Shown one piece after another: positions 4,568-24,162 of a stretch of 24,162 nt of DNA; positions within the stretch are counted from its first letter, which is position 1, and the number at the start of each line of letters is the position of its first letter. A model generated the notes under the pieces. That model worked only from the letters and a program-made list of their open reading frames with translations, searched no databases and was not told the DNA's origin. The position numbers and the translations under genes were made by a program. The DNA is from a virus (lineage: Duplodnaviria; Heunggongvirae; Uroviricota; Caudoviricetes), in the IMG/VR virus record IMGVR_UViG_2690316224_000007; one strand, 5' to 3'.

Positions 4568-5070
4568 CAGCACAACTCCGCAAAGATTCGCGGACGGCAC
4601 AGAATGTCAGAGATGGCCCAGCTCACATCACGCCACAAATCCGATGTCTGTATATCCAGTGCGTCCGCCCGGCGGTCGCCCTTGTCCGTTGTGTCCGCAT
4701 CGCGGTAACGCTCCAGAATCAGGGCGCGTGTGGCGGTGTAAACCGCATTGCGCCAGTGCCAGAGATTGACGCTTTCTCCGTTAATTACGGGTGCCGGAAC
4801 ATCGGCCAGCGTCTGATGGCCAGCCGCCTGCTGTTCCTGCTGCCATGCTTCCAGCTCGCGGGTAACATGTGCCACAGCCCCGGTGGCGGTATGCAGCAGA
4901 CGGGAGGTGGTCACACGGCCCGGCAGTCGTACCGCCAGACGCAGCTCACGCAGCACAATATCCGGCCAGAATGCACCCGCTGAAATACGGGTATCACCAT
5001 CATCGGTATCGGTGATGTCGTCCTCTGCGGGGCCGGGGTTGGTTCTGGCAACCATACTCATGGGGTTCAC
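4567..5070 (-). CDS. L: Head completion/stabilisation protein gpL
   Basis: 167-aa ORF between M and X; length and position as P2 L. Confidence 0.82.
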   Translation of the reverse strand: MNPMSMVARTNPGPAEDDITDTDDGDTRISAGAFWPDIVLRELRLAVRLPGRVTTSRLLHTATGAVAHVTRELEAWQQEQQAAGHQTLADVPAPVINGESVNLWHWRNAVYTATRALILERYRDADTTDKGDRRADALDIQTSDLWRDVSWAISDILCRPRIFAELC

Positions 5071-5163
5071 TCCTGAAAAAAATCGGGCGGTGGGTGCGCG
5101 GTGTAAACGGTCACGGAGTCAAACCGGAACACCGCGCACGCCGCCCGCTGACGGGGTCAGTCG

Positions 5164-5964
5164 TTAACCGCGCTTCGCCTTCTGCGTCGCGGTGGTTTTT
5201 CGTGTTGCAGGCTTCCGCGTTGTCTTTTTACTTTTGCTGCTTTCGTCCTGCGCCTGCTGTGCGCTGGCGTCTTCTGGTTCGGCTGCGGAATCGGCTTTTT
5301 TCAGGGCGCGGGAAAGGGTTGCAATCTCGCGTTTCACACCTGCATTCGGGTTCAGGTGCATTGCTTCGCGCAGCAGCTTCAGTGACAGGGCCATGCTGTC
5401 CGCATCACTCAGGCCACGACGGGCAAAGGCGCACGCCTTGCATAATTTGGCGCGCACTTCGTCCGGCATGTCCTGGTCGGTGACAATCTCCCGGAGGGTA
5501 TCCAGTGGTTCGATAAAGGCGGACAAATCCGCGTCGGCATCCGTCCCGGCCTGCGTCAGTACCGGGTTGCAGATTTCTTCGGTCAGCACTGTGGCAGCAG
5601 TACGGCCAAAGTTATCCGGCATAATGAGGTTATGACGGACCACATACGCACCAATACGCAACGCCAGCGGAAGATCGCCGCAGTCAATCGCCCACACCAT
5701 CAGCGTGGCAATCACTTCATCCTGCTGCCCGCCGTCAGCCTCCAGCGTTCCCTCAATCCAGCCGGAAAAGTCCGGCAACAACTCTTTTTTGATGGCGGCT
5801 TTCGCGCTTCTGGCCTGTACGCCCTTAAGCCGGGCCTGTGCCAGACGCAGACGATACAGCACCTCTTCATGCGCGGTACGCGCGGCGTGGTCCACGCCTT
5901 CATTCGCCCGGCCTGCGCGCTGTGCCATCACGTTCTGCCAGTGTTGCTGTGCAGGAGTAATCAT
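5164..5964 (-). CDS. M: Terminase endonuclease (small) subunit gpM
   Basis: 266-aa ORF after N in P2 order, with a basic Lys/Arg/Thr-rich C-terminal tail. Confidence 0.82.
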   Translation of the reverse strand: MITPAQQHWQNVMAQRAGRANEGVDHAARTAHEEVLYRLRLAQARLKGVQARSAKAAIKKELLPDFSGWIEGTLEADGGQQDEVIATLMVWAIDCGDLPLALRIGAYVVRHNLIMPDNFGRTAATVLTEEICNPVLTQAGTDADADLSAFIEPLDTLREIVTDQDMPDEVRAKLCKACAFARRGLSDADSMALSLKLLREAMHLNPNAGVKREIATLSRALKKADSAAEPEDASAQQAQDESSKSKKTTRKPATRKTTATQKAKRG

Positions 5965-6009
5965 TTTTTCTCTCCGTTACAGGCGGGCATGATGCCCGCT
6001 GTGAGTTGA

Positions 6010-7062
6010 TTAGCTGTCGGCGAACTTCAGGCCAGTGACCATCGCGCACTTGCCATAGTCTTCAACGACATAAGCGTCATTGATGGACTGGTAGGTGGCG
6101 ATGCGGTTGTATTCCGGTTCGTCTTTCATCAGACGACGCATTGAACCTTTCTGCCAGTAAATCGACAGGTTGTTGAACGAGGTGATCAGCATCGTTGCAT
6201 CCGGGAAGAACGGCGCAAGGAACACACCCAGCCCGCCAATGGTGCGCGATGACAGGATGAGCTGTCCGGCGAGTAATTCCGCATTGGGATTCTGGCCGCT
6301 GATGCTGTTCAGCACGGGCAGACGCAGCGAGTTAAACAGGTTGCGCCCCATAATCACCACGAGGTCGTCAGCTTCCTTGTGCCATTCATCCAGCAGGGAT
6401 GAGCGTGCGTCCTGAACCAGTGCATCAGCGTTCGCATACTTACCCGCGTGCGCCACGGTGTTGTCCATGTTGCGGGAGGTCAGCGTCACGTCATTCATTA
6501 CGCGCGCGCTGGCATTGGTTCTGATGTGCTCCAGCCACCCCACGTTAACGTCCTGAAGCAGCTTGTTGGTGCTGAAGTTGGATTTTTCCGCGTGTGACGT
6601 GCCGTTAAAGCCGATCATGATGCGGTCAAGCGCCACCTGTCGGGCAATCTGTGCGCTGATGCGGGTCTGGAAGTCATTGTGCGCCGCCCAGGCATCAAGC
6701 TGCGGATACGAAATAAACGTGTCGTAGTTCACCTGCTCACACTGGTACTGACGGGACTTCAGGTCGACAGCGTTAATCGGGTTGCGGCGATCTGTGCCGT
6801 CATAACTGGTATTTGTGCGCGCAATCGGCCCGGTGGTGTCCATGAGGACTTTTTCGCCTTTCTGGTCGGTCACACCGATCACGTTAATTTTTTTTGTAAG
6901 TTCGGTGCTATCCTTTGAGGCGTTTTCAAAACGCTGCTGCACCGAGGGTTCCACGGTAAATCGCGATACCAGCCCAGAAACCGGGATATTGTTAATCGAC
7001 GCCTGTCGCGTCATGTAGCAGCCCAGCTTGTTACGGGCATTATCTGACATCACCAGATTCAT
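6010..7062 (-). CDS. N: Major capsid protein gpN
   Basis: 350-aa ORF sharing blocks with P2 N as recalled (FTVEPSV, GFNG, VGWL, PFFPDATMLIT, NLSIYWQ, YVVEDY). AAGGAG SD upstream of ATG at 7062. Confidence 0.9.
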   Translation of the reverse strand: MNLVMSDNARNKLGCYMTRQASINNIPVSGLVSRFTVEPSVQQRFENASKDSTELTKKINVIGVTDQKGEKVLMDTTGPIARTNTSYDGTDRRNPINAVDLKSRQYQCEQVNYDTFISYPQLDAWAAHNDFQTRISAQIARQVALDRIMIGFNGTSHAEKSNFSTNKLLQDVNVGWLEHIRTNASARVMNDVTLTSRNMDNTVAHAGKYANADALVQDARSSLLDEWHKEADDLVVIMGRNLFNSLRLPVLNSISGQNPNAELLAGQLILSSRTIGGLGVFLAPFFPDATMLITSFNNLSIYWQKGSMRRLMKDEPEYNRIATYQSINDAYVVEDYGKCAMVTGLKFADS

Positions 7063-7085
7063 AAAAAATTTGCTCCTTTGTCTTA

Positions 7086-7922
7086 TCAGAAGTCAGCCAG
7101 CTGGTCGGAGGCTGCGCCCGTTGCGGTGAACCGGTTCTGCGGATCGCCGTCCTGCGTGCGCAGTTTTTCCTTCAGTGCTGTCAGCTCTGTGGTCAGCGAA
7201 GTGATTTTCTGGCTGTCCTGCTGATGGCGGGTTTCCAGTGCATTAAAACGGTCGATAATATCGGCCTGTGACGTTGCGACACCTTCCACCGCTTCCTGAA
7301 TACGGGAGAAACTGGCGTCATCCGCTTTGCGGCCACGGCCAATAATCCCCATAACGCGGTTAAACCACTGGGTGCCTTCTTCCTGACGTTGTTCGGTGAG
7401 TTCGATAAGTTCTGACTCCATAGCGGCGGTGAACATCGCCACGTCTCCCTGCTGACAGTTGAATGTCATCAGTTGCATACGTTGTTGTGCCGCAAAGGCC
7501 AGACGTTCCGTGCCCAGGCTGGCGGGGGTGTCGGTCATTGCCAGCCCGCGCAGGTAAGGGCCTCCCGTGATGGTTGACTGTGGTTCCAGCTCAATACTGG
7601 AGTAAATTTTTTTACCATCGTTAAGCAGGGACATCATGCGAGCGGTCGGCTCAATTTCGGCATACAGTGCCGTGCGGCCTGCCAGCGGGCCATCGGTTAT
7701 GTCTTCGGTGCTCAACCCCACAACATCGCCCATAGCGGAAAACTCGCTACCGGGGAGTGGTGACAGGATGTGCTCAATATTCACACGTGCACCATAAACG
7801 GACGGGTTATAACTGGTGGCGGCAGCTTTCAGCATGTCGCCGTTGATTTCGCGCCCGTCTGCCGTCACACCGGAGACAGCCACGCGAAACTTTTTGCGGG
7901 ATGTCTTTTTTTCATTAGTCAT
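7086..7922 (-). CDS. O: Capsid scaffolding protein gpO
   Basis: Start chosen at ATG 7922 (MTNEKKTSRKKFRVAVSG), which has an AGAGGGG SD 8 nt upstream; the longer track start at 7955 has no SD. Product has the P2 O-like DPASLGTE block and a coiled-coil C-terminus. Confidence 0.82.
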   Translation of the reverse strand: MTNEKKTSRKKFRVAVSGVTADGREINGDMLKAAATSYNPSVYGARVNIEHILSPLPGSEFSAMGDVVGLSTEDITDGPLAGRTALYAEIEPTARMMSLLNDGKKIYSSIELEPQSTITGGPYLRGLAMTDTPASLGTERLAFAAQQRMQLMTFNCQQGDVAMFTAAMESELIELTEQRQEEGTQWFNRVMGIIGRGRKADDASFSRIQEAVEGVATSQADIIDRFNALETRHQQDSQKITSLTTELTALKEKLRTQDGDPQNRFTATGAASDQLADF

Positions 7923-11994: not shown

Positions 11995-12306
11995 TTACTC
12001 AGGAAATAACGCCCGGATATTCCCAGCCATCTGGCTGGTTATCTTAGCCACTGGTGCAGACTGTGCTTCAAACTTTTTTGAGCTGATTTGTGTCACAGGT
12101 AATATCTCATCATCAGCCCATGCGGCCAGTCGGTAAGCCTCTGCCGGATTCGTCTTCAGAAGTGCCAGCCCGGCCAGAAAAGCCACGCGTTGGCCGCTTT
12201 TGCGGGCTTCTGGTGTAAGGCTGTCCAGCCAGGCGCATGCTTCTCCTTCGTTCTTGACGGCAGCTGGCTTCAGATAGAAACTTATTCTTCTGGTTGGTGT
12301 CGTCAT
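11995..12306 (-). CDS. parR: ParR/StbB-like centromere-binding protein (ribbon-helix-helix type)
   Basis: 103-aa ORF 4 nt downstream of parM, with an AAGGAG SD in the parM 3' end. Blocks RRISFYLKP, ACAWLDSL..E, RVAFLAGLAL and NIRALFPE align with plasmid R1 ParR as recalled. Confidence 0.65.
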   Translation of the reverse strand: MTTPTRRISFYLKPAAVKNEGEACAWLDSLTPEARKSGQRVAFLAGLALLKTNPAEAYRLAAWADDEILPVTQISSKKFEAQSAPVAKITSQMAGNIRALFPE

Positions 12307-12310
12307 TGGT

Positions 12311-13270
12311 TTACTCCTTGTTCATTGCGTACAGCCCATTAACCAGAGCAAATTGTGGCACCCCGTCCGCGATGAAAGTCGCATTAACTCCGCAGGCTTC
12401 GCGGATAGCGGGTGCCACAATCTCCGCCCCGCCACCGACAACCATCACCCGCCCGTAACCCGAAAAAACCGCCAGAGCGCGGATCACGCGTTGTTTCAGT
12501 GTTTCTTCCTTTTCACGAATAATCGCCATCAGGCTGGCGTAATGCGCGTCATTGTGGATGTGCTGGCGCAACCAGGCTTCATCATGGCGATGTTCGATAA
12601 TGGTATTGGCGATGTGGTGACTGGTGCGCATACCGTTAGTGGCCATCACCGACAGTACGGCATCGGCCATCAGAGAAACGCCTACGTGTGGATCGCAAAA
12701 CACCTGGCTGATACCTGCCAGTTGCCCCTGAACCTTTGCCACATCCAGCGTGGTTCCGCCCAAATCCACAATCAGCAGGGATTCAAACGGACTCATGTCA
12801 GCCAGTGCCTTAAAGCCAGCCGGAATGGATTCAGGCATAACCCGCACGTTACGGATAGTGAATGCTTCGCCGTTCTGGTACTCCACCGGGCGCATAACGT
12901 TCGCTTTTTTGCGGTTGATGTTGGCCATGTCCGGCTGTGCGTTTGTGTCGAAATACTCGCTCAGTGGCAGGGTGACAACCACATCCACCTCCCGTGGCGT
13001 GATGCCTGATTTGACCAGCGCGTGATGAATGGCAATGACATTCACATCGCTGTACTGGTATTGCGTGTCGGTCGTCTGGACAAAGCGATCGCTGACCGGA
13101 TCAAAACCATAGCGCACGCCATCAAGCATGTAGTTCGCGGGCTGCGTGCCACCGAACGGCGCAGACCATTCCGACTTGAAGCTGTTCGGGCTGATGGCGT
13201 TGCGGCGTTCGCCGTTCTCAGTCCATGCCAGCTTGATGTTGGTGGAGCCGTCGTCGATACAAATTCTCAT
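12311..13270 (-). CDS. parM: ParM/StbA actin-like segregation ATPase
   Basis: 319-aa ORF with a near-complete set of ParM blocks matching R1 ParM as recalled: IDDGSTNIKL, SPNSFK, YSDVNV, HHAL, TLPL, RKKAN, FTIRNVRVMPESIPAG, SLLIVDLGGTTLD, GVSL, LKQRV, FSGYGRVMVVGGGAE, LVNGLY. AGGAAAA SD before the ATG. Confidence 0.9.
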   Translation of the reverse strand: MRICIDDGSTNIKLAWTENGERRNAISPNSFKSEWSAPFGGTQPANYMLDGVRYGFDPVSDRFVQTTDTQYQYSDVNVIAIHHALVKSGITPREVDVVVTLPLSEYFDTNAQPDMANINRKKANVMRPVEYQNGEAFTIRNVRVMPESIPAGFKALADMSPFESLLIVDLGGTTLDVAKVQGQLAGISQVFCDPHVGVSLMADAVLSVMATNGMRTSHHIANTIIEHRHDEAWLRQHIHNDAHYASLMAIIREKEETLKQRVIRALAVFSGYGRVMVVGGGAEIVAPAIREACGVNATFIADGVPQFALVNGLYAMNKE

Positions 13271-13301: not shown

Positions 13302-13415
13302 TTTACGGGATTTTTAAATCCCGTTTTCGCCTGTTTTGTGCGCGCTTCATATATCGCGGCGCGTTTTTTGCTCATTTACGGGATTTGTGAATCCCGTTTC
13401 TGTCTGTTTTTTGTT
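13302..13415. repeat. Two ~39-bp direct repeats, each with a palindrome (ACGGGATTTTTAAATCCCGT / ACGGGATTTGTGAATCCCGT), spanning the A stop codon and the parM upstream region
   Basis: Repeat 1 at 13302..13340, repeat 2 at 13377..13415, 75 bp apart; each has CCCGTTTy and CTGTTTT sub-motifs. A TTAATTAAT -10-like element lies between repeat 1 and the parM SD. Confidence 0.5.
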
Positions 13416-16169
13416 TCCACTGGTCAGGCTACCCCGCAGCAGGTCTGCTTTGCGGCGGGCGCGTTCAGTGGTTTCACTGATTCTCTGTGCGTGCTCTGCG
13501 TCACGAATGGCGCGCAGCATGTCAGAAAGCACGGTAACGGGGGTTTTCATGGTGTTCTGGTCCTGCTGAAGTGTGGATGCCAGGCGTGCGGCGGCTTCGG
13601 GGTCTGATGTCCCCAGCTGTTCCAGATAGCTGGCGACCGGGTTATGGCGGATCTCCGTACTGCTTACGCCGTGGTTACGGCTCAGGCGCTGCCAGAGCTG
13701 CGTGATCCGGCTGTCCGGTCGGGTATCCGGTTTGCGTACAATTTCAAATCCCTGCGGTGCAATGTTGCTGCCGTCAACGTACAGACTGCCGCCCCGTAAC
13801 AGGTGCTGCATCTGCTGTTCACCGATATGCAGGCCGAGAGATTCAGCAGACTCCCGCCATTCTTTAGCGAGTAGTTCGTGGTTATCAGGCAAAGGCCGCT
13901 GCTGTTTGCGGCTCTGTGTCCAGCTCTGCATTTCATCACGGCTGTTTTTTGCCTGTTTGTCACGAAGCGAACGCATCAGCGCCCGGCGTTCGTGCCGTTT
14001 CAGTGAGCGCATCCATTCGTTCACTTCAACGCCGTCAGGGAGCTGCGGCCACGGTGCTGGCCGTTCTTCCGGCTGTTCTGTCCCGTTGTTGTCCGTTTCC
14101 TGTACACGGGGACAGTTATTGCCACGAGTCCAAGGGGCGGCAGGGCCGCCCTGAAGGTCAAAACCATTTTCGCGGGCGCTGTCTTCCGCTTCCGGTTTGC
14201 GTCTTACCAGCTTCCAGTTATCCGGATGCGTGCATACGCGGGAAGACTCCCCAATGAGCGGCGACCAGATCCCGTAAATCTGTACACTCTGCTCGCCGTA
14301 ATCGTTCAGCTCATCTGCGAGGTCGTAGGCTGTGCGAATCAGGTAGTCCTTGCGCGGAACAAGTACGCCCCCCTGTTTTTCAATGTAGGTGGCAAAACAT
14401 CCGGCATCAGCGGCAGCGAGTACCGCATCCATTGCGTCATCCTTCAGCCGTTGCGGGCCTTCCGGGTTGCGTGCCATCTGGCTGGCAAGGCGGCGGAGTT
14501 CACGCCACACCTGACGGGAGGGGATGCCAAAGAACTGGAACTGGCGGACCCGGTGAAGGCGCGCCCAGCCGATGGCACGCTCCACGCTCTCGGCCATTGA
14601 TTTACCTGTTTCGTGGTCAACGCGTGGCTTGCCCGTTTTCGGGTCGATGCCATCCACGGCACGGCTGTCCAGGTTTTTCCCGATGTAGGTGGCGATGTAG
14701 CTGGTCGGTGTGCCTTTTGAGCCGTCGACGTACTCCGCTTTAAAACGCGGAGTTATGTCATCGCCCAGCTCGTGACGATCTTCCTGAATGGCAATATCGC
14801 GGGTGTGGGACACAATGGTGTCGATTTCTTCCGGATGAGCAAAGACCATCATATGCCAGTGCACGGTGCCGTCATGGTGAGGCTCCACCGTGCGGATGCC
14901 ATACCAGCGCAGGCCGTCGCGGTTCAGTTTCTTGCGGACCGCCGCAAAAAACGAGTTAACCAGGTAATCGCTGGAGTCGCGCATAGTGGCCCCGTTCCAT
15001 TTGGGATTCGGATGACCGTTCTCCGTTGTTGCGTGGTATTTTGACGGGCAGGTGACAGTCAGAAACACCGCTCTGTCGCCACGGGCTTCGGCCAGAAGTT
15101 CCAGCCCCTTCATGGTGGCCATCATTTCTGCCTTACGGTGAACCGGGTTACTTACTCCCGCGTAATACACCGTCTCGAGATCAATCGTGAACCCGTCTTC
15201 ATTTTCCAGCATGAAACTTTTCAGGAAATCGCGTGTTTTCTCGCGCTGTGCGCGAAACTCGCTTAACGCATCCTGGCTCAGATAGGGCGATGTTTTTCTG
15301 GAAACCAGACAGGCGGCGCGGAGTTGTTCTTCTCTCCACTCGCAACGTAACAGCCACAGTTTGCGTTTCCACCATTCCGCACAGGTCAGGCGAAGGACTG
15401 CGCCCGGCAGCAGCTCCGTGTCCGGTTCGTTCCTCCGGTCTTTATCTGTTGTCAGTGCGTCATAATGTGGAGGCATGATGTGCAGGTGTAACGCCATGCG
15501 GGCCAGCATCTGATACGTCTTCAGCGTTACATCCATGGTCAGTTCGCCATCGGTCGCGCCAAAGCCATCGCAGAGTTTTTCGAAGGTGCTGCTGAACATC
15601 GCCGCCGTCATGGTGGCCAGCGTCTGTATCTGGTGTTTGTTGAGCTGCGGCAGGTAAAGCAAATCGTCCAGGCGTTCGCGTCCGGCAAGGGAGCGATAAC
15701 CCGGTGTCAGCCAGCGTCCGTCAGTGCGATCCAGACGTTCGAATATTTTGCGCAGGGTTCCGCGTGCATAGCGTTCCGCCTGCCAGCTCTTTTTGCCTTT
15801 CCGGCGATCGACTTCCTGTTTTTTGCGCAGGAAGGAGAGGTGGCGAATAAGCGGATCGCGCAGATAGGACGGCAGCAGGCGCAGCGAGGCCATGGCTTCA
15901 TCCACCGTGCCGCGTGCCTGTCTTCTGGCGTCTCCTGCCAGCGTGATGGTTTTGTCCTGTTTTTCCTGTGCGTCCAGGCTTTTATTAATCAGGTTGCCCA
16001 GTGGCGTGGCAGAGAACGCCGCATCAGCCTTTTCCTGTCGGTGCTCGTTCTCTGCCTGGTAGGCATCCAGCCAGGAGGAAAGCGCAGATTCAGGTGCGGG
16101 GATCCCCGTTCCTTCACGCCCCACTGCGTGGCGCGGTTGTTGCCAGTCCCTGATGTACTCTGTCGTCAT
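13347..16169 (-). CDS. A: Replication initiation endonuclease gpA (rolling-circle HUH initiator), 940 aa
   Basis: HUH motif seen as VEPHHDGTVHWHMMVF and the two-tyrosine catalytic motif as TSYIATYIGKN (Y-x3-Y). Position downstream of the small early genes matches P2 A; about 180 aa longer than P2 A at the C-terminus. Confidence 0.88.
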   Translation of the reverse strand: MTTEYIRDWQQPRHAVGREGTGIPAPESALSSWLDAYQAENEHRQEKADAAFSATPLGNLINKSLDAQEKQDKTITLAGDARRQARGTVDEAMASLRLLPSYLRDPLIRHLSFLRKKQEVDRRKGKKSWQAERYARGTLRKIFERLDRTDGRWLTPGYRSLAGRERLDDLLYLPQLNKHQIQTLATMTAAMFSSTFEKLCDGFGATDGELTMDVTLKTYQMLARMALHLHIMPPHYDALTTDKDRRNEPDTELLPGAVLRLTCAEWWKRKLWLLRCEWREEQLRAACLVSRKTSPYLSQDALSEFRAQREKTRDFLKSFMLENEDGFTIDLETVYYAGVSNPVHRKAEMMATMKGLELLAEARGDRAVFLTVTCPSKYHATTENGHPNPKWNGATMRDSSDYLVNSFFAAVRKKLNRDGLRWYGIRTVEPHHDGTVHWHMMVFAHPEEIDTIVSHTRDIAIQEDRHELGDDITPRFKAEYVDGSKGTPTSYIATYIGKNLDSRAVDGIDPKTGKPRVDHETGKSMAESVERAIGWARLHRVRQFQFFGIPSRQVWRELRRLASQMARNPEGPQRLKDDAMDAVLAAADAGCFATYIEKQGGVLVPRKDYLIRTAYDLADELNDYGEQSVQIYGIWSPLIGESSRVCTHPDNWKLVRRKPEAEDSARENGFDLQGGPAAPWTRGNNCPRVQETDNNGTEQPEERPAPWPQLPDGVEVNEWMRSLKRHERRALMRSLRDKQAKNSRDEMQSWTQSRKQQRPLPDNHELLAKEWRESAESLGLHIGEQQMQHLLRGGSLYVDGSNIAPQGFEIVRKPDTRPDSRITQLWQRLSRNHGVSSTEIRHNPVASYLEQLGTSDPEAAARLASTLQQDQNTMKTPVTVLSDMLRAIRDAEHAQRISETTERARRKADLLRGSLTSGNKKQTETGFTNPVNEQKTRRDI

Positions 16170-16175
16170 ACTGAT

Positions 16176-16541
16176 TTACTGCGTCATACCGTTCAGGGTG
16201 TCACGGCAAACGGCAGCCAGCCGCTGAATTTCCAGCACGGTGTCTTCTGTGTCGGCATAGCGATGTGTGATGCGGATGCTGTCGGCAATCACATCGACGA
16301 TTGCAGAGGATGGGCGCTGGTAAATGCCAATAACGGACGGAGTGCCACCTTCAATGCGGTAAAGCCTGTAATTTCCCTCGTGGCTGTCAATCATGTAGCG
16401 ACCATCAATAACAATCTTTCCGTCAGCGAGCTGCGGTACAGGCAGGGATTTCAGGTACATGTCATAACGTTCACGCACGCGAACGGCAAGATCACGCTCT
16501 GTGTTGAGCAGGTATTCAAGAAAGTCGTTGGCGAGAATCAT
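16176..16541 (-). CDS. Hypothetical early protein (121 aa) immediately upstream of A
   Basis: AAGAGGA SD 8 nt upstream of the ATG; stop lies 6 nt before the A start. Present in all three repeat copies with a few amino-acid differences. No recognisable family. Confidence 0.6.
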   Translation of the reverse strand: MILANDFLEYLLNTERDLAVRVRERYDMYLKSLPVPQLADGKIVIDGRYMIDSHEGNYRLYRIEGGTPSVIGIYQRPSSAIVDVIADSIRITHRYADTEDTVLEIQRLAAVCRDTLNGMTQ

Positions 16542-16613
16542 TGCGGCAATCCTCTTGTTACAGATGTGCGAAGGCCTCCCGCCGCAAGGTGCAGGAAAGG
16601 CCCGGAACAGGAA

Positions 16614-16844
16614 TTAATGGAGTTTGTTTTGCTGCTGGATGAGCTGCTGAAGCTCGCGCAGATCATCCGCCAGATAACTGAAAACAGCGGATGAGTAGAG
16701 GTTTGAAAGTTCGCAGCTACGCTCATGCAGCATATTGATGTGCATGATTTTAGCGACGCGGAATGCGCGGGAAAGTCTGCGGTTGATTTCAGTCTGGATG
16801 TGACGACGCTCCGCGATAGCGCGGTGCTGTTTGCGGTTTGCCAT
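16614..16844 (-). CDS. Hypothetical small basic protein (76 aa)
   Basis: AGAGG SD 7 nt upstream of the ATG; basic helical N-terminus (NRKQHRAIAERRHIQTEINRRL); identical in all three copies. Confidence 0.5.
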   Translation of the reverse strand: MANRKQHRAIAERRHIQTEINRRLSRAFRVAKIMHINMLHERSCELSNLYSSAVFSYLADDLRELQQLIQQQNKLH

Positions 16845-17211
16845 GGTGTGGCCTCTTTGGTTGTAAGTTTTGAAAACTCACCATCCAGAGCTGCGAAACT
16901 GTGGGTGGCGAGACGTACGGGGTTCGCAGTACCGGCAACCAAAGAACCCGGCCCGACCGAAGTCGGCCCCGTACGCCCCGCCATAATTCTGACGCGAAAA
17001 AAACGTGGCAATACAGTACGCACAAAAAAACCGCTGGCGCGGTTGTGCGCTTTGGTTGTCAGCAGGCTGCGAAACCCGGCACCCGTTTTATGAGGTGCAG
17101 CGAAAATGTAACCTGACTGATTGCGGCATGGCAAGCGGTTTTTTTGTGAGAACGGCATACTAAAAAATCCTGATACTGCTCCGGCCAGCGGTTTGCACTG
17201 GCCGGGTGTCA
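16845..17211 (-). ncRNA. Structured non-coding spacer between the SPFH gene and the 76-aa gene (candidate terminator cluster or small RNA)
   Basis: Minus-strand reading shows, in order, an 8-bp-stem hairpin CCGGCCAG..CTGGCCGG just after the SPFH stop, a hairpin AACCGC-GCCA-GCGGTT followed by TTTTTTT, a second T7 run, and a CCGAC-UUCG-GUCGG tetraloop hairpin. The only long ORF across it is low-complexity and out of frame with the 76-aa gene. Identical copies at 20135..20501 and 21523..21889. Confidence 0.4.
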
Positions 17212-17636
17212 TTACTTCACGGGAACGAACGGAACAGCGGTGTTACTGGTCATGTATTGCGGCAGCGTGCCGTTCCATTTGTTGATCGCTTCCAGCTCCA
17301 TAACGCCGGGATTCTGGCGCAGAGCTTCGCCGCGTAAACGAATGGCGTCGGCTTCAGCCTGGGCTTTTGTGCGAATGGCATCGGCCTGTCCGGCAGCTTC
17401 TGCGCGCAACATGTTGGCTTCTGCTTCGCGCTGCTTGACTTCCTGTTCGCGTTGCAGGGTTTTCTGGTTTGCCGTGACTTTGGCATTAATGCTGTCGATA
17501 ACGGTTGGCGGGTATTCCGGCTTACCCACATAAGAGAGGCTCATTACCTGAATGCCGATAGGTGTCGTTTCTGCCTGAATGTCTTTAAGTGCTGAATCCA
17601 GCAGTTCAGACTTGCCACCGTCGATAAATTTATCGN
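17212..17636 (-). pseudogene. 3' fragment of the SPFH lipoprotein gene (copy 1), truncated at an N
   Basis: Colinear with 21890..22314 of the full-length gene; coding continuity ends exactly at the ambiguous base at 17637. Confidence 0.65.
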
Positions 17637-17637
17637 G
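17637..17637. other. Single N: probable contig join
   Basis: SPFH-gene sequence lies directly before the N and mid-gene A sequence directly after it, which cannot be one contiguous locus. Confidence 0.8.
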
Positions 17638-19459
17638 TGCGAATCAGGTAGTCTTTGCGTGGAACAAGTACGCCGCCCTGTTTCTCTATGTAGGTGGCAA
17701 AACATCCGGCATCAGCGGCAGCGAGTACCGCATCCATTGCGTCATCCTTCAGCCGTTGCGGGCCTTCCGGGTTGCGTGCCATCTGGCTGGCAAGGCGGCG
17801 GAGTTCACGCCACACCTGACGGGAGGGGATACCAAAGAACTGGAACTGGCGGACACGGTGAAGGCGCGCCCAGCCGATGGCGCGTTCCACGCTCTCGGCC
17901 ATTGATTTTCCGGTTTCGTGGTCAACGCGTGGCTTGCCCGTTTTCGGGTCGATGCCATCTACGGCGCGGCTGTCCAGGTTCTTTCCGATGTAGGTGGCGA
18001 TGTAGCTGGTTGGCGTGCCTTTTGAGCCGTCGACGTACTCCGCCTTAAAGCGTGGGGTAATATCATCACCCAGCTCGTGACGATCTTCCTGAATGGCAAT
18101 ATCGCGGGTGTGGGACACAATGGTGTCGATTTCTTCCGGATGAGCAAAGACCATCATATGCCAGTGCACGGTGCCGTCATGGTGAGGCTCCACCGTGCGG
18201 ATGCCATACCAGCGCAGGCCGTCGCGGTTCAGTTTCTTGCGGACCGCCGCAAAAAACGTGTTAACCAGGTAATCGCTGGAGTCGCGCATGGTGGCCCCGT
18301 TCCATTTGGGATTCGGATGACCGTTCTCTGTTGTGGCGTGGTATTTTGACGGGCAGGTGATGGTCAGAAACACCGCTTTGTCGCCACGGGCTTCGGCCAG
18401 AAGTTCCAGCCCCTTCATGGTGGCCATCATTTCTGCCTTACGGTGAACCGGGTTACTTACTCCCGCGTAATACACTGTCTCGAGATCAATCGTGAACCCG
18501 TCTTCGTTTTCCAGAATGAAACTTTTCAGGAAATCGCGTGTTTTCTCGCGCTGTGCGCGAAACTCGCTTAACGCGTCCTGGCTCAGATAGGGCGATGTTT
18601 TTCTGGAAACCAGACAGGCGGCGCGGAGTTGTTCTTCCCGCCACTCGCAACGTAACAGCCACAGTTTGCGTTTCCACCATTCCGCACAGGTCAGGCGAAG
18701 GATTGCGCCCGGTAACAGTTCCGTATCCGGATCGCTCTTGTTCAGAGCTTCGTAATGTGGCGGCATGGCGTGCAGGTGTAACGCCATGCGGGCCAGCATC
18801 TGATACGCCTTCAGCGTTACATCCATGGTCAGTTCGCCATCGGTCGCGCCAAAGCCATCGCAGAGTTTTTCGAAGGTGCTGCTGAACATCGCCGCCGTCA
18901 TGGTGGCCAGCGTCTGTATCTGGTACTGGTTGAGCTGCGGCAGGTAAAGCAAATCATCCAGGCGTTCGCGTCCGGCAAGGGAGCGATAACCCGGTGTCAG
19001 CCAGCGGTGGTCGGTGCGGTCCAGACGTTCGAATATTTTGCGCAGTGTTCCGCGCGCGTAGCGTTCAGCCTGCCAGCTCTTTTTGCCTTTCCGGCGATCG
19101 GCTTCCTGTTTTTTGCGCAGGAAGGAGAGGTGGCGAATAAGCGGATCGCGCAGATAGGACGGCAGCAGGCGCAGCGAGGCCATGGCTTCATCCACCGCGC
19201 CGCGTGCCTGTTTTCTGGCGTCTCCTGCCAGTGTGATGGTTTTGTCCTGTTTTTCCTGTGCGTCCAGGCTTTTATTAATCAGGTTGCCCAGCGGCGTGGC
19301 GGAGAACGCCGCATCAGCCATTTCCTGGCGGCGCTCGTTCTCTGCCCGGTAGGCATCCAGCCAGGAGGAAAGCGCGGATTCAGGAACGGGGATCCCCGTT
19401 CCTTCACGCCCCACTGCGTGGCGCGGTTGTTGCCAGTCCCTGATGTACTCTGCCGTCAT
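17638..19459 (-). pseudogene. A: gpA copy 2: N-terminal ~607 codons, truncated at the N
   Basis: Colinear with 14340..16169 but with many substitutions and an indel (HYDALTTDKDRRNEPDTELL versus HYEALNKSDPDTELL), i.e. a divergent allele rather than an exact duplicate. Confidence 0.7.
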
Positions 19460-19465
19460 AGTGAT

Positions 19466-19831
19466 TTACTTCGTCATGCCATTCAGGGTGTCGCGGCAGA
19501 CGGCAGCCAGCCGCTGAATTTCCAGCACGGTGTCTTCTGTGTCGGCATGGCGATGTGTGATGCGGATGCTGTCGGCAATCACATCGACGATTGCAGAGGA
19601 TGGGCGCTGGTAAATGCCAATAACGGACGGGGTGCCATCTTCAATGCGGTAAAGCCTGTAATTTCCCTCGTGGCTGTCAATCATGTAGCGACCATCAATA
19701 ACAATCTTTCCGTCAGCGAGCTGCGGTACAGGCAGGGATTTCAGGTACATGTCATAACGTTCACGCACGCGAACGGCAAGATCACGCTCTGTGTTGAGCA
19801 GGTATTCAAGAAAGTCGTTGGCGAGAATCAT
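19466..19831 (-). CDS. 121-aa early protein, copy 2
   Basis: Differs from copy 1 at three residues (G to D, Y to H, terminal Q to K). Confidence 0.55.
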   Translation of the reverse strand: MILANDFLEYLLNTERDLAVRVRERYDMYLKSLPVPQLADGKIVIDGRYMIDSHEGNYRLYRIEDGTPSVIGIYQRPSSAIVDVIADSIRITHRHADTEDTVLEIQRLAAVCRDTLNGMTK

Positions 19832-19903
19832 TGCGGCAATCCTCTTGTTACAGATGTGCGAAGGCCTCCCGCCGCAAGGTGCAGGAAAGGCCCGGAACAG
19901 GAA

Positions 19904-20134
19904 TTAATGGAGTTTGTTTTGCTGCTGGATGAGCTGCTGAAGCTCGCGCAGATCATCCGCCAGATAACTGAAAACAGCGGATGAGTAGAGGTTTGAAAGT
20001 TCGCAGCTACGCTCATGCAGCATATTGATGTGCATGATTTTAGCGACGCGGAATGCGCGGGAAAGTCTGCGGTTGATTTCAGTCTGGATGTGACGACGCT
20101 CCGCGATAGCGCGGTGCTGTTTGCGGTTTGCCAT
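19904..20134 (-). CDS. 76-aa basic protein, copy 2
   Basis: Identical to copy 1. Confidence 0.45.
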   Translation of the reverse strand: MANRKQHRAIAERRHIQTEINRRLSRAFRVAKIMHINMLHERSCELSNLYSSAVFSYLADDLRELQQLIQQQNKLH

Positions 20135-20501
20135 GGTGTGGCCTCTTTGGTTGTAAGTTTTGAAAACTCACCATCCAGAGCTGCGAAACTGTGGGTGGCG
20201 AGACGTACGGGGTTCGCAGTACCGGCAACCAAAGAACCCGGCCCGACCGAAGTCGGCCCCGTACGCCCCGCCATAATTCTGACGCGAAAAAAACGTGGCA
20301 ATACAGTACGCACAAAAAAACCGCTGGCGCGGTTGTGCGCTTTGGTTGTCAGCAGGCTGCGAAACCCGGCACCCGTTTTATGAGGTGCAGCGAAAATGTA
20401 ACCTGACTGATTGCGGCATGGCAAGCGGTTTTTTTGTGAGAACGGCATACTAAAAAATCCTGATACTGCTCCGGCCAGCGGTTTGCACTGGCCGGGTGTC
20501 A

Positions 20502-20768
20502 TTACTTCACGGGAACGAACGGAACAGCGGTGTTACTGGTCATGTATTGCGGCAGCGTGCCGTTCCATTTGTTGATCGCTTCCAGCTCCATAACGCCGGG
20601 ATTCTGGCGCAGAGCTTCGCCGCGTAAACGAATGGCGTCGGCTTCAGCCTGGGCTTTTGTGCGAATGGCATCGGCCTGTCCGGCAGCTTCTGCGCGCAAC
20701 ATGTTGGCTTCTGCTTCGCGCTGCTTGACTTCCTGTTCGCGTTGCAGGGTTTTCTGGTTTGCCGTGAC
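20502..20768 (-). pseudogene. 3' fragment of the SPFH lipoprotein gene (copy 2), truncated at the N run
   Basis: Colinear with 21890..22156; ends at NNNNNN. Confidence 0.65.
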
Positions 20769-20774
20769 NNNNNN
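20769..20774. other. NNNNNN: probable scaffold gap or contig join
   Basis: Flanked by SPFH-internal sequence on the left and the A 5' end on the right. Confidence 0.8.
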
Positions 20775-20847
20775 CGGGGATCCCCGTTCCTTCACGCCCC
20801 ACTGCGTGGCGCGGTTGTTGCCAGTCCCTGATGTACTCTGCCGTCAT
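20775..20847 (-). pseudogene. A: gpA copy 3: first 24 codons only
   Basis: MTAEYIRDWQQPRHAVGREGTGIP then the N run. Confidence 0.65.
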
Positions 20848-20853
20848 AGTGAT

Positions 20854-21219
20854 TTACTTCGTCATGCCATTCAGGGTGTCGCGGCAGACGGCAGCCAGCC
20901 GCTGAATTTCCAGCACGGTGTCTTCTGTGTCGGCATGGCGATGTGTGATGCGGATGCTGTCGGCAATCACATCGACGATTGCAGAGGATGGGCGCTGGTA
21001 AATGCCAATAACGGACGGAGTGCCACCTTCAATGCGGTAAAGCCTGTAATTTCCCTCGTGGCTGTCAATCATGTAGCGACCATCAATAACAATCTTTCCG
21101 TCAGCGAGCTGCGGTACAGGCAGGGATTTCTGGTACATGTCATAACGATCACGCACGCGAGCGGCAAGATCACGTTCTGTGTTGAGCAGGTATTCAAGAA
21201 AGTCGTTGGCGAGAATCAT
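20854..21219 (-). CDS. 121-aa early protein, copy 3
   Basis: A third allele (substitutions in the RVRDRYDMYQKSL segment relative to copies 1 and 2). Confidence 0.55.
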   Translation of the reverse strand: MILANDFLEYLLNTERDLAARVRDRYDMYQKSLPVPQLADGKIVIDGRYMIDSHEGNYRLYRIEGGTPSVIGIYQRPSSAIVDVIADSIRITHRHADTEDTVLEIQRLAAVCRDTLNGMTK

Positions 21220-21291
21220 TGCGGCAATCCTCTTGTTACAGATGTGCGAAGGCCTCCCGCCGCAAGGTGCAGGAAAGGCCCGGAACAGGAA

Positions 21292-21522
21292 TTAATGGAG
21301 TTTGTTTTGCTGCTGGATGAGCTGCTGAAGCTCGCGCAGATCATCCGCCAGATAACTGAAAACAGCGGATGAGTAGAGGTTTGAAAGTTCGCAGCTACGC
21401 TCATGCAGCATATTGATGTGCATGATTTTAGCGACGCGGAATGCGCGGGAAAGTCTGCGGTTGATTTCAGTCTGGATGTGACGACGCTCCGCGATAGCGC
21501 GGTGCTGTTTGCGGTTTGCCAT
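21292..21522 (-). CDS. 76-aa basic protein, copy 3
   Basis: Identical to copies 1 and 2. Confidence 0.45.
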   Translation of the reverse strand: MANRKQHRAIAERRHIQTEINRRLSRAFRVAKIMHINMLHERSCELSNLYSSAVFSYLADDLRELQQLIQQQNKLH

Positions 21523-21889
21523 GGTGTGGCCTCTTTGGTTGTAAGTTTTGAAAACTCACCATCCAGAGCTGCGAAACTGTGGGTGGCGAGACGTACGGGG
21601 TTCGCAGTACCGGCAACCAAAGAACCCGGCCCGACCGAAGTCGGCCCCGTACGCCCCGCCATAATTCTGACGCGAAAAAAACGTGGCAATACAGTACGCA
21701 CAAAAAAACCGCTGGCGCGGTTGTGCGCTTTGGTTGTCAGCAGGCTGCGAAACCCGGCACCCGTTTTATGAGGTGCAGCGAAAATGTAACCTGACTGATT
21801 GCGGCATGGCAAGCGGTTTTTTTGTGAGAACGGCATACTAAAAAATCCTGATACTGCTCCGGCCAGCGGTTTGCACTGGCCGGGTGTCA

Positions 21890-22720
21890 TTACTTCACGG
21901 GAACGAACGGAACAGCGGTGTTACTGGTCATGTATTGCGGCAGCGTGCCGTTCCATTTGTTGATCGCTTCCAGCTCCATAACGCCGGGATTCTGGCGCAG
22001 AGCTTCGCCGCGTAAACGAATGGCGTCGGCTTCAGCCTGGGCTTTTGTGCGAATGGCATCGGCCTGTCCGGCAGCTTCTGCGCGCAACATGTTGGCTTCT
22101 GCTTCGCGCTGCTTGACTTCCTGTTCGCGTTGCAGGGTTTTCTGGTTTGCCGTGACTTTGGCATTAATGCTGTCGATAACGGTTGGCGGGTATTCCGGCT
22201 TACCCACATAAGAGAGGCTCATTACCTGAATGCCGATAGGTGTCGTTTCTGCCTGAATGTCTTTAAGTGCTGAATCCAGCAGTTCAGACTTGCCACCGTC
22301 GATAAATTTATCGGTGGTCATTTTGCTGGCCAGTCGGTTGAGTGCGTCGGCGATCTTCTGGCGCAGGTCAGTGTCGGTAATGTCATCCACGCCTTTGCGG
22401 TAGGTCTGAAACACTGTAGTAACTTTGGATGGATCAACCTTGTAGGCCACACCGATGTGATAGCCGATGGTTGTGCCGTCACTCATCTGAAAGCTGAACG
22501 GCTCATCGTAGGTCTTCATTTGTTTGAAGGTCGGGAAGATGTAAACCTCGGTATTCCAGCCAGTCCAGTAGCGACCAACGCCAACCACTTCGCCAACGCC
22601 TTTGTCGTCGCCCAGCTTGTTGACTTTGATGCCCACATTACCTGGCTCAACGCGATCGCAGCCAACCAGCAGGATGGCGGCAAAAAGCGGGAGAATCTGA
22701 AAGAGTCTGAATTTCTTCAT
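21890..22720 (-). CDS. SPFH/Band-7 (stomatin/prohibitin/HflK-C-like) lipoprotein, predicted periplasmic-face inner-membrane anchored
   Basis: 276-aa ORF with signal peptide and lipobox LLVGC followed by Asp at +2 (C-D-R-V). SPFH-like core and a C-terminal Ala/Glu/Gln/Arg-rich coiled-coil (REQEVKQREAEANMLRAEAAGQADAIRTKAQAEADAIRLRGEAL). ATGA overlap with the upstream membrane-protein gene. Confidence 0.8.
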   Translation of the reverse strand: MKKFRLFQILPLFAAILLVGCDRVEPGNVGIKVNKLGDDKGVGEVVGVGRYWTGWNTEVYIFPTFKQMKTYDEPFSFQMSDGTTIGYHIGVAYKVDPSKVTTVFQTYRKGVDDITDTDLRQKIADALNRLASKMTTDKFIDGGKSELLDSALKDIQAETTPIGIQVMSLSYVGKPEYPPTVIDSINAKVTANQKTLQREQEVKQREAEANMLRAEAAGQADAIRTKAQAEADAIRLRGEALRQNPGVMELEAINKWNGTLPQYMTSNTAVPFVPVK

Positions 22721-22920
22721 TGTTTAATTTCCTTGATGTACTTACTGAAAAGGCGAACAACGCCTGCCGGGTACAACATGGCAATGAAAATGCCCAGCAA
22801 TACCAGGAAGGAGCTGTCTGATGAAATCATTCGGGGGAGTACCCCTACATACAGAATGAGAGAGACGAGGACGCATACCAGCGCCCATGCATATGCACGA
22901 AACCATGTCTTGTTGTTCAT
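22717..22920 (-). CDS. Small two-helix membrane protein (67 aa), translationally coupled to the SPFH gene
   Basis: ATG at 22920 with an AAGGG SD; product MNNKTWFRAYAWALVCVLVSLILYVGVLPRMISSDSSFLVLLGIFIAMLYPAGVVRLFSKYIKEIKQ has two hydrophobic helices. The longer track ORF from 23052 overlaps the upstream gene out of frame. Confidence 0.5.
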   Translation of the reverse strand: MNNKTWFRAYAWALVCVLVSLILYVGVLPRMISSDSSFLVLLGIFIAMLYPAGVVRLFSKYIKEIKQ

Positions 22921-22930
22921 GTTGCGGCCC

Positions 22931-23230
22931 TTACTGGTTAAGGAAAAAATCGAAAACCTTGTCAATGCGTTGCAGCAGCTCTTGTTGTATTGCTTCCGGC
23001 GTTTCCGGTTCGCCTGGCGCCTCCAACGTCGCGCAGAAATCAGCGATTTCATGATGGAGCGTCAGGCGAATGGCAGGAGCCGTGGTTCTGGCGTGCTCCA
23101 GCTCATCCAGCAATGCCAGCGCAGCAGACGGCGAGAGCATTGCGCGAAATGCCAGTAATTTTTGAGGTGTTGCCATTCGTTGCAGGGCAAATGCCAGTTC
23201 GCGTAGCTTCTGGTGGTTGATGGTGCTCAT
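22931..23230 (-). CDS. Hypothetical early protein (99 aa, acidic, helical)
   Basis: ATGA overlap with the upstream gene stop; no family recognised. Confidence 0.5.
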   Translation of the reverse strand: MSTINHQKLRELAFALQRMATPQKLLAFRAMLSPSAALALLDELEHARTTAPAIRLTLHHEIADFCATLEAPGEPETPEAIQQELLQRIDKVFDFFLNQ

Positions 23231-23493
23231 GTTCTGGCTTCCTTCAGTAGCTGGTTAAACATGTGAGTAAGTGGATTGCTACACCCGAACGGCATCGGGT
23301 TTACGTGGTAAGAAGCCTGGCCTCCAGTTTTGCGAGCGCGACCACCTGTGCTGCGGTTTGTTCTGATGACTAAGCCGCCGCGCCAAAGTTGGCGTAACTC
23401 AGCATTAATGGCTGTGGTTGGAGTATTCAGTGCTGCGGCGATCTCTCCGCCGCTACACCCCGGATGAGTAGCGATGTAGTCCAGAATGGTCAT
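23227..23493 (-). CDS. Putative winged-helix DNA-binding protein (88 aa)
   Basis: N-terminal ILDYIATHPGCSGGEIAAALNTPTTAINAELRQLWRGGLV resembles an HTH followed by a wing; ATGA overlap with the upstream gene. Confidence 0.45.
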   Translation of the reverse strand: MTILDYIATHPGCSGGEIAAALNTPTTAINAELRQLWRGGLVIRTNRSTGGRARKTGGQASYHVNPMPFGCSNPLTHMFNQLLKEART

Positions 23494-23693
23494 CTGCGTG
23501 GCTCCTGTACCTGTCGGATAAGGTTTACCCGCGCCACATTAGTGGCGCAGAAGTAAGTGCCGTCAGTGAGGTAGATGTGATGTGCATCCTTTTCCGAACG
23601 ATGTTTGTCGATAGTGGTAATCAGTCGTTCGTCGACCTCGTATTCGCGGTCTCTGGAGGTGAGGCGAACGACAGGAAAATGCTTAATTGCCAT
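23490..23693 (-). CDS. Hypothetical early protein (67 aa)
   Basis: TAATG overlap with the upstream gene; no family recognised. Confidence 0.4.
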   Translation of the reverse strand: MAIKHFPVVRLTSRDREYEVDERLITTIDKHRSEKDAHHIYLTDGTYFCATNVARVNLIRQVQEPRR

Positions 23694-23956
23694 TACACCC
23701 TCTTGGCTTTATGTCTGTATTTGAGCTTTTCTATTTCTTCTTTTTGTTCTTTTAATGTTCTTATGGCTGTGAAAACATTAAAGCCCATAAAATGTGCTCT
23801 GTTCGCTAATGTAATACTGGCACCTTTGTTAGCTATATCATCTTCAATATCAGTGAAATACTGACTGATTTCTTTTAGTGCGGCGCAAAGCTTTGCGAGA
23901 TCTCGCCCCCTGTCAAAATATGCATCCTTCAGTATTTTTTGATTTGTCCTGAGCAT
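23693..23956 (-). CDS. Hypothetical first gene of the early operon (87 aa from ATG 23956; track ORF extends to 24010)
   Basis: GAGG SD 5 nt upstream of ATG 23956, and a TATATATA -10-like element just upstream; AT-rich codon usage unlike the structural genes. Identity (Cox/Apl/CII-like) unknown. Confidence 0.4.
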   Translation of the reverse strand: MLRTNQKILKDAYFDRGRDLAKLCAALKEISQYFTDIEDDIANKGASITLANRAHFMGFNVFTAIRTLKEQKEEIEKLKYRHKAKRV

Positions 23957-24048
23957 GCTAACCTCGTGTTTATATATATGGATACCTCCGCGAGTGCGGA
24001 TTGTTTTCATGTTTTCTTATTTAATCGTGTGTTTTATTTGTGCTGTTA

Positions 24049-24159
24049 TTCTTCAGTGAAAAAACGCTCAATCTTTTTTACTGAATGAATAATTCGCATA
24101 ATCCCAATAGCGCAGGCCACCGAAATAATCAGAACAAGCCATGAGATAAATATACTCAT
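24049..24159 (-). CDS. Possible small hydrophobic peptide (36 aa) at the window edge
   Basis: MSIFISWLVLIISVACAIGIMRIIHSVKKIERFFTEE, one predicted transmembrane helix. The ATG is 3 nt from the window end, so no upstream signal is visible and the ORF may extend further. Confidence 0.2.
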
Positions 24160-24162
24160 GCG

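Follow-up and report, generated by a model that had tools for sequence, protein, structure and literature searches.

In phage P88 (NC_026014; Peduoviridae, Xuanwuvirus), the early genes are arranged in the order int, C, cox, DUF4761, a hypothetical gene, DUF4754, gp07 (a membrane protein of 37 amino acids, aa) and gp08 (67 aa). These are followed by gp09 (winged helix), gp10 (Ead/Ea22-like), gp11 (membrane), gp12 (SPFH lipoprotein) and the gene for a derepression protein, and then by gp15, a 940-aa replication endonuclease, ParM and a partition protein. Here we consider a chain of four small genes at positions 22931-24162 of IMG/VR record IMGVR_UViG_2690316224_000007, a stretch of 24,162 nucleotides from a member of the Caudoviricetes that we refer to as the window. 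An initial annotation, made from the window alone, described this chain as the probable start of an early/immunity region. The region is already known: P88 and many E. coli genomes contain it, with its products annotated as hypothetical proteins.

We consider it highly probable that the interval is an internal segment of one long early (lytic) operon, which belongs to a P2-like E. coli prophage of the P88 type (Xuanwuvirus). First, the gene order equals that of P88, with which positions 21800-24162 share 91.2% nucleotide identity over 88% of their length; in the comparison with P88 and E. coli prophages, positions 22700-24162 reach 95.4% identity over 100% of their length. Many E. coli prophages are 95-98% identical to the region and have matching gene calls, and tblastn with each protein finds a match at the expected position in 84 related loci. 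Second, look-ups of the exact 105-aa and 99-aa proteins encoded here return one context every time: int, C, cox, DUF4761, a 95-aa gene, DUF4754, the 37-aa gene, a slot, the 67-, 88- and 99-aa genes, the membrane and SPFH genes (an optional pair), the derepression gene, a 121-aa gene and A. Prophages with either exact protein are integrated beside pheA, pdxB or dmsA. Furthermore, more than 1,200 genomes retain the gene array as a block, and promoter- or terminator-like signals were not found inside it. The assignment of the chain to an early operon, which had been proposed initially, is borne out by the synteny with P88.

The placement of the chain within this operon is different from the one first proposed. 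Relatives with an identical 105-aa protein have five to six further co-oriented genes upstream of it, namely the 37-aa gene, DUF4754, the 95-aa gene, DUF4761, sometimes a 68-aa gene, and Cox, and in these loci about 1.8 kb separate the start of the Cox gene from that of the 105-aa gene downstream. Measured in relatives from the position of the right edge of the window, cox ends at about 1.35 kb, C starts at about 1.75 kb and the integrase gene lies at about 2.2-3.2 kb. With about 1.75 kb and five to six genes, including Cox, before C, the interval sits in the middle of the operon and not at the start of the early/immunity region. Already within the window, the 37-aa gene precedes the chain, and its start codon overlaps, as ATGA (cgcATGAgt at the window edge), the stop codon of a gene that exits the window and that is, to judge from relatives, DUF4754. 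The expectation that the repressor and integrase would be found just beyond the window was right as to direction, since both lie to the right in relatives, but they are about 1.75 and 2.2 kb away and not adjacent.

A promoter had also been placed at 23960-24000, with TATATATA as a -10-like element and GAGG as the Shine-Dalgarno (SD) sequence of the first gene. Both strings are present (at 23970-23978 and 23962-23965, respectively), and the possible -10 hexamers are TATATA at 23978-23973 and TATAAA at 23974-23969. However, the hexamers 17 nt upstream of these strings, ATCCGC and GCACTC, agree with TTGACA in at most one of six positions, and direct reading of the sequence reveals no usable -35 for the TATATATA string. 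A scan of 21800-24162 for the sigma-70 consensus on both strands returned no promoter-like site, where 2.5 would be expected by chance, and the DNA just upstream is backbone spacer that is also found in prophages without the gene. In a close relative (L093), the best operon-strand site, TTGACA-18-TATCCT (10 of 12 positions), lies between C and cox; the scan of this relative yielded no site from 4666 to 7200, a span that includes the 105-aa gene at 5001, and none from the DUF4754 gene to the end of the SPFH gene. Given the empty scan and the synteny, the two strings stand and the promoter built on them is left without support.

The description of the chain itself held. The list of open reading frames (ORFs) agrees with four small minus-strand genes of 105/87, 67, 88 and 99 aa, which are linked by overlapping stop and start codons, TAATG between the 105-aa and 67-aa genes and ATGA at both the 67-to-88-aa and the 88-to-99-aa junctions. 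After the 99-aa gene, a gap of 10 nt leads into the membrane/SPFH pair, whose members overlap by ATGA. The P88 annotation shows identical overlaps between genes, and an SD-like motif lies 5-10 nt upstream of every start in the chain. Across related loci, the ratio of nonsynonymous to synonymous substitution rates (dN/dS) is 0.04-0.26 for every ORF (0.20 for the 37-aa gene, 0.09 for the 67-aa gene and 0.14 for the 99-aa gene over 43 alleles), so that every ORF is under purifying selection and these are real coding genes and not chance ORFs. The AT-richness that had been attributed to the whole chain is confined to 23693-24162, about the rightmost 470 bases, and does not extend to the other three small genes: GC content is 38% in the 105-aa gene and 34% in the 37-aa gene, as compared with 51-54% in the 67-, 88- and 99-aa genes and about 55% in the window. 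What the initial annotation observed was therefore partly confirmed, in that the gene chain is real and the AT-richness of the whole and the head position are not, and its interpretation was partly supported, with four points that held and three that did not.

Based on the close relatives, transcription would start at a C-repressed early promoter that lies between C and cox, some 1.8 kb beyond the right edge of the window. It would proceed leftward through cox, DUF4761, the 95-aa gene, DUF4754 and the gene for the 37-aa peptide into the chain, and onward through the membrane/SPFH pair, the isrK/C4 RNA module and the A replicase gene. The overlapping stop and start codons, together with the SD sequence of each gene, would allow ribosomes to re-initiate on the next gene (translational coupling), and this coupling would give co-ordinated, early and transient expression upon induction or infection. 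The first gene, apparently with neither promoter nor terminator of its own, would be read as part of the operon.

This first gene is nevertheless different in kind from the rest of the chain, and its sequence marks it as a low-GC cassette, exclusive to E. coli prophages, inserted in a defined slot. When the distance between the 37-aa and 67-aa genes was measured in the 84 related loci, three states of the slot were found: about 89 nt when empty (86-89 nt in P88), 355 nt with the 105-aa ORF, and 530-546 nt with a 136-aa ORF (phrog_9338). When the three states are aligned, the 105-aa ORF is seen to begin with 54 nt (18 codons) that every variant has as backbone spacer. Elsewhere, the start codon of the 105-aa call reads ATGTAA (in empty-slot phages) or GTG (in L013, a variant with 89% identity). 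Cassette-specific DNA starts at the TATATATAAAC string and carries both the GAGG and the ATG at 23956; the TATATATA string is found at its 5' junction. Since the 18-codon leader belongs to the backbone and the cassette brings its own GAGG and ATG, the true product is most likely 87 aa, and the start at 23956 appears likelier than the annotated start at ATG 24010; protein databases contain both calls. At the other end, the last four codons of the cassette gene and its stop codon are made from the backbone SD region of the 67-aa gene. The spacer that separates the 37-aa gene from the slot also contains a 5-bp hairpin or palindrome, TCCGC-N4-GCGGA, at 23987-24000, which is kept in all slot variants and which, on the antisense strand, is followed by a T-rich run and has a terminator-like look.

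Of 5,426 complete E. coli genomes, 1,232 have the 67-aa backbone gene and 439 the 136-aa cassette; the 87/105-aa cassette occurs in 18, mostly human strains of the enterotoxigenic E. coli type, with all copies at least 99% identical. The only family match of the 87/105-aa protein is phrog_21900. A word-indexed search of 5.8e9 proteins found its relatives in E. coli only, at 85% identity or more, and an exhaustive phmmer search of 1.8e9 cluster representatives returned nothing other than its own cluster and one spurious repetitive ORF. Neither the 105-aa nor the 67-aa protein has any match in Pfam, NCBIfam or PADLOC, and among the PADLOC models of anti-phage defence the chain proteins have only matches with E of 0.007 or higher, to unrelated helix-turn-helix (HTH) or membrane segments. 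The 87-aa protein is predicted to be all-helical and basic, with a pI of 9.6. The 136-aa slot protein (5018-5428 in L004, with homologs in L006-L084) has a conserved C-terminal half, and its N-terminal helical half occurs in at least three types that are 49-56% identical overall, a pattern of localized diversification. Kinship between the 87-aa and 136-aa proteins, for which BLASTP gave an E of 0.025, was dropped because the profile-profile probability was 1.3%.

Two readings give the slot a larger role. The first holds that the site between the 37-aa and 67-aa genes is a dedicated exchange point whose occupants are early counter-defense or inter-phage competition factors, belong to new families and diversify in an arms race; it cites the N-terminal half of the 136-aa protein, which has diverged to less than 50% identity. 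We regard this reading as unlikely. The second, in which we have still less confidence, holds that the 87/105-aa gene is a classical moron with a weak or activator-dependent promoter of its own, which may also drive the coupled downstream genes, and that it is expressed in the repressed prophage for lysogenic conversion, exclusion or anti-defense. The gene does have an atypical composition (38% GC against about 53% in neighboring genes) and is sporadically present at a fixed site; its occurrence in 18 of 1,232 backbone-bearing genomes, in copies at least 99% identical, suggests recent spread, no relatives were found outside E. coli prophages, and the cassette has, precisely at its 5' junction, an A/T-rich TATA string that the variant with 89% identity retains. 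However, by consensus scanning the gene appears to have no promoter of its own, there being neither a -35 nor a scan match, and a consensus-type scan likewise found no sense-strand terminator around or after it. Furthermore, its end is built from the backbone SD region and fused to the 67-aa gene by TAATG, the 136-aa cassette in the same place has an SD sequence only and no TATA string, and PADLOC returned no match.

The three remaining small proteins belong to the backbone families of P88. The 67-aa protein (phrog_3459) is found in enterobacterial prophages only, and its AlphaFold2 model is a small five-stranded beta-barrel; Foldseek found no match to this model in PDB or BFVD at E of 0.001 or below, the best ones being barrels of the SH3, Tudor and Sac7d type at E of 0.01 or higher. 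A fusion of the 67-aa protein to a winged HTH protein, hinted at by PHROG 19053, was sought in homolog searches and rejected, as none was found. The initial annotation had recognized a winged-helix product, which is the 88-aa protein (phrog_1687, E 6.9e-32): it matches MarR_2 with 29.1 bits (cut-off 27; E 1.1e-6), as well as HTH_24, and the MarR_2 alignment joins residues 2-53 to profile positions 9-61 of 61. Relatives of the protein come from E. coli and E. albertii and have 79-88 aa, and the gene is missing in some related loci and sister prophages. A sequence search of the PDB gave no close relative, only MarR-type matches of 147-160 aa that cover the core with E of 0.37-0.9. The protein thus shares with the MarR family a winged-helix core above the curated cut-off, whereas full-length members have about 140-160 aa with N- and C-terminal dimerization helices and the 88-aa protein consists of the core of about 55 residues only. 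We therefore regard it as a predicted generic winged-helix DNA binder whose MarR membership is not demonstrated.

The 99-aa protein falls in phrog_4144 (E 1.1e-61) and has no relative in a PDB sequence search. Its N-terminal ~50 aa bear a weak likeness to Ead/Ea22, and the alignment to Ead_Ea22 (PF13935) covers 27 residues (25-51) with 20.6 bits, under the cut-off of 27. The "ead/Ea22-like" label of P88 gp10 rests on this short sub-threshold match, and we consider both database labels, "MarR family" and "Ead/Ea22-like," to be thinly supported. In the literature on Xuanwuvirus and on SPFH proteins in anti-phage contexts, we found mentions at the level of annotation and no functional study; a paper on C. 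rodentium prophages lists the "MarR family regulator" and the "serine protease" of phiSM/CRPr20 as putative fitness genes (PMC6456863).

It could be argued that the four proteins are orthologs of P2 orf78-83/B or of the unnamed accessory genes of 186, diverged past recognition and with the same functions. Their equivalent position between cox and A would fit this scenario, and the neighboring 121-aa protein has a marginal tblastn match to P2 orf81 (E 0.09). Against the P2 and 186 early regions, however, tblastn gives E above 1 for all chain proteins, whereas it gives 1e-77 and 1e-91 for the A replicase. In addition, there is no Pfam or PHROG match to the P2/186 families (DUF2732, DksA-like zinc finger, DUF5405), with which the predicted beta-barrel and winged-helix folds do not fit either. 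We consider this scenario very improbable. These searches uphold the initial statement that none of the proteins resembles P2 Cox or B: no chain protein matches the Pfam Cox family, the Cox gene of relative L003 is recovered as PF10743 with E 1.3e-22 as a positive control, and Pfam, PHROG and tblastn place none of the small proteins in known P2 early families. The weakest alternative, that the chain begins the early/immunity region from its own promoter at 23960-24000, with TATATATA as the -10 and with a divergent repressor and integrase immediately beyond the window, can draw on the existence of TATATATA and GAGG, on the AT-rich window edge and on the repressor and integrase that do occur to the right in relatives, but it is hardly tenable, being largely refuted by synteny (the co-oriented 37-aa gene that lies upstream within the window and is ATGA-coupled to the gene off the edge, and the ~1.75 kb with five to six genes, Cox among them, before C in relatives with the identical protein) and further contradicted by the lack of any promoter-like site, by hexamers (ATCCGC, GCACTC) that match TTGACA in at most one of six positions and by the location of the best promoter-like site of a relative between C and cox.

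Several points weigh against our placement of the interval inside a P88-type early operon and against the account of its genes given above. The right-hand context comes from relatives, with 95% identity and an identical 105-aa protein, and not from the source genome itself. The low GC and sporadic presence of the first gene would also be expected of a self-expressed moron, and our promoter scan was a crude consensus search that is blind to activator-dependent and non-sigma-70 promoters. As to structure, the AlphaFold2 model of the 105-aa protein is unusable (predicted local distance difference test, pLDDT, 56), and of the five models of the 67-aa protein only one is confident (pLDDT 81). Coordinates of the features are collected in the table.

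Table. Features of the early operon segment in the window
Feature	Positions	Strand	Remark
Gene for 37-aa single-pass membrane peptide, P88 gp07 homolog	24046..24159	-	one hydrophobic helix
Backbone spacer between 37-aa gene and cassette	23957..24045	-	from alignment of three slot variants
105-aa ORF	23693..24010	-	internal ATG at 23956 gives 87 aa (23693..23956)
67-aa backbone gene, P88 gp08 family, phrog_3459	23490..23693	-	
88-aa stand-alone winged helix, P88 gp09 family	23227..23493	-	
99-aa acidic helical protein, P88 gp10 family, phrog_4144	22931..23230	-	
67-aa two-helix membrane protein, P88 gp11, phrog_1130	22717..22920	-	two hydrophobic segments
276-aa SPFH/Band-7 lipoprotein, P88 gp12	21890..22720	-	
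isrK Hfq-binding RNA	21702-21776	-	65.9 bits
C4 antisense RNA	21579-21666	-	87.1 bits
Gene for 76-aa "derepression protein," PF25738	21292-21522	-	

Downstream of the chain, the membrane and SPFH genes form a second optional cassette, which is absent from most related IMG/VR loci; in one prophage (L095) a 183-aa gene (6095-6646) takes the place of the pair. The true start of the membrane gene is the ATG at 22920, and the mechanical 111-aa ORF begins too early, as judged from the PHROG match to residues 50-111 and from the P88 annotation. The SPFH protein matches Band_7 (PF01145) with 106.1 bits against a cut-off of 23.6, falls in phrog_200 and has an N-terminal lipobox, LVGC. Copies with 92.6% identity in Stx2-converting lambdoid phages are labeled "serine protease."

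Between the SPFH gene and the derepression gene lie the isrK and C4 RNAs. The C4 loop, TCTTTGGTTG (21623-21614), has a perfect complement in CAACCAAAGA (21541-21532), a stretch that spans the SD sequence of the derepression gene, and a 9-nt copy of the C4 target is found within isrK at 21736-21728. From these sequences, the isrK/C4/derepression set is a predicted antirepressor control module like immI of P1/P7 (c4-icd-ant), placed inside a P2-like early operon, and it would represent a second, RNA-based immunity element in the window. A mechanical 224-aa ORF at 21216-21890 (minus strand), with copies at 16538-17212 and 19828-20502, covers both RNAs and almost certainly does not represent a gene; at its position, relatives have at most an "ash family" pseudogene, and one caller produced a fused 206-aa product with a weak Phage_ASH match.

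The window is made up of three scaffolded pieces with Ns between them (at 17636 and at 20769-20774), and the pieces overlap one another (14332-17478 with 17637-20768, and 16097-17639 with 20775-22316). A segment that comprises the 5' two-thirds of the replicase gene, the 121-aa gene, the derepression gene, isrK/C4 and part of the SPFH gene is present in three copies with 96.8-99.6% identity, and ORFs of 609 aa (17630-19459) and 97 aa (20502-20795) are truncated copies. This looks like an artefact of assembly or scaffolding, or like reads from at least two P88-like prophages in one genome, and not like a real triplication. The replicase gene at 13347-16169 (minus strand) encodes 940 aa, against 761 aa in P2, and the Phage_GPA domain covers residues 179-503 only, so that, compared with P2 A, the protein has additional regions at both termini. 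Just downstream of it are two ORFs at 11995-12306 and 12311-13270 (both on the minus strand), of 103 and 319 aa, which match the Plasmid_stab_B and ParM-type (StbA_N/ParM_N) genes of P88 and its relatives by size and position only. P2 has orf91, tin and old at this position, and the comparison suggests a putative plasmid-like partition module in this phage group.

Beyond annotation, these results matter little: they fix the region in the middle of an operon and likely correct one gene start, from 105 to 87 aa. The polymorphic slot with its two uncharacterized genes is the sole lead of some potential, in a backbone prophage carried by about one in four complete E. coli genomes.

With the chain placed in the middle of an early operon, its relation to described systems can be set out. 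Between the window and gp07-gp12 of P88, the order, the overlaps and the families are common, and the difference is that the slot between gp07 and gp08 is empty in P88 and holds the 87/105-aa gene in the window. With morons, this gene shares low GC, sporadic presence, a defined insertion point and alternative occupants, but it differs from them in that no promoter or terminator of its own was found and in being embedded in, and coupled to, the host operon. The suggestion that the early module had been swapped relative to P2 fails for cox, which is not replaced and merely lies outside the window; what does differ is the accessory gene set, and this is the standard set of P88 and Xuanwuvirus. 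The orf78-orf83 genes of P2 and the genes between cII and A of 186 occupy the same operon position as the chain and are likewise small and tightly packed or overlapping, whereas they have no detectable sequence similarity to it and their Pfam families differ. In the 186 record, the unnamed genes between dhr and A are described as "not essential," fil and dhr act on the host, and translation of orf84 is needed for translation of A. Given that the position of the chain equals that of the non-essential accessory genes of P2 and 186, its genes would likeliest have dispensable functions in host takeover or regulation, a proposal that we advance less firmly than the placement of the chain itself.

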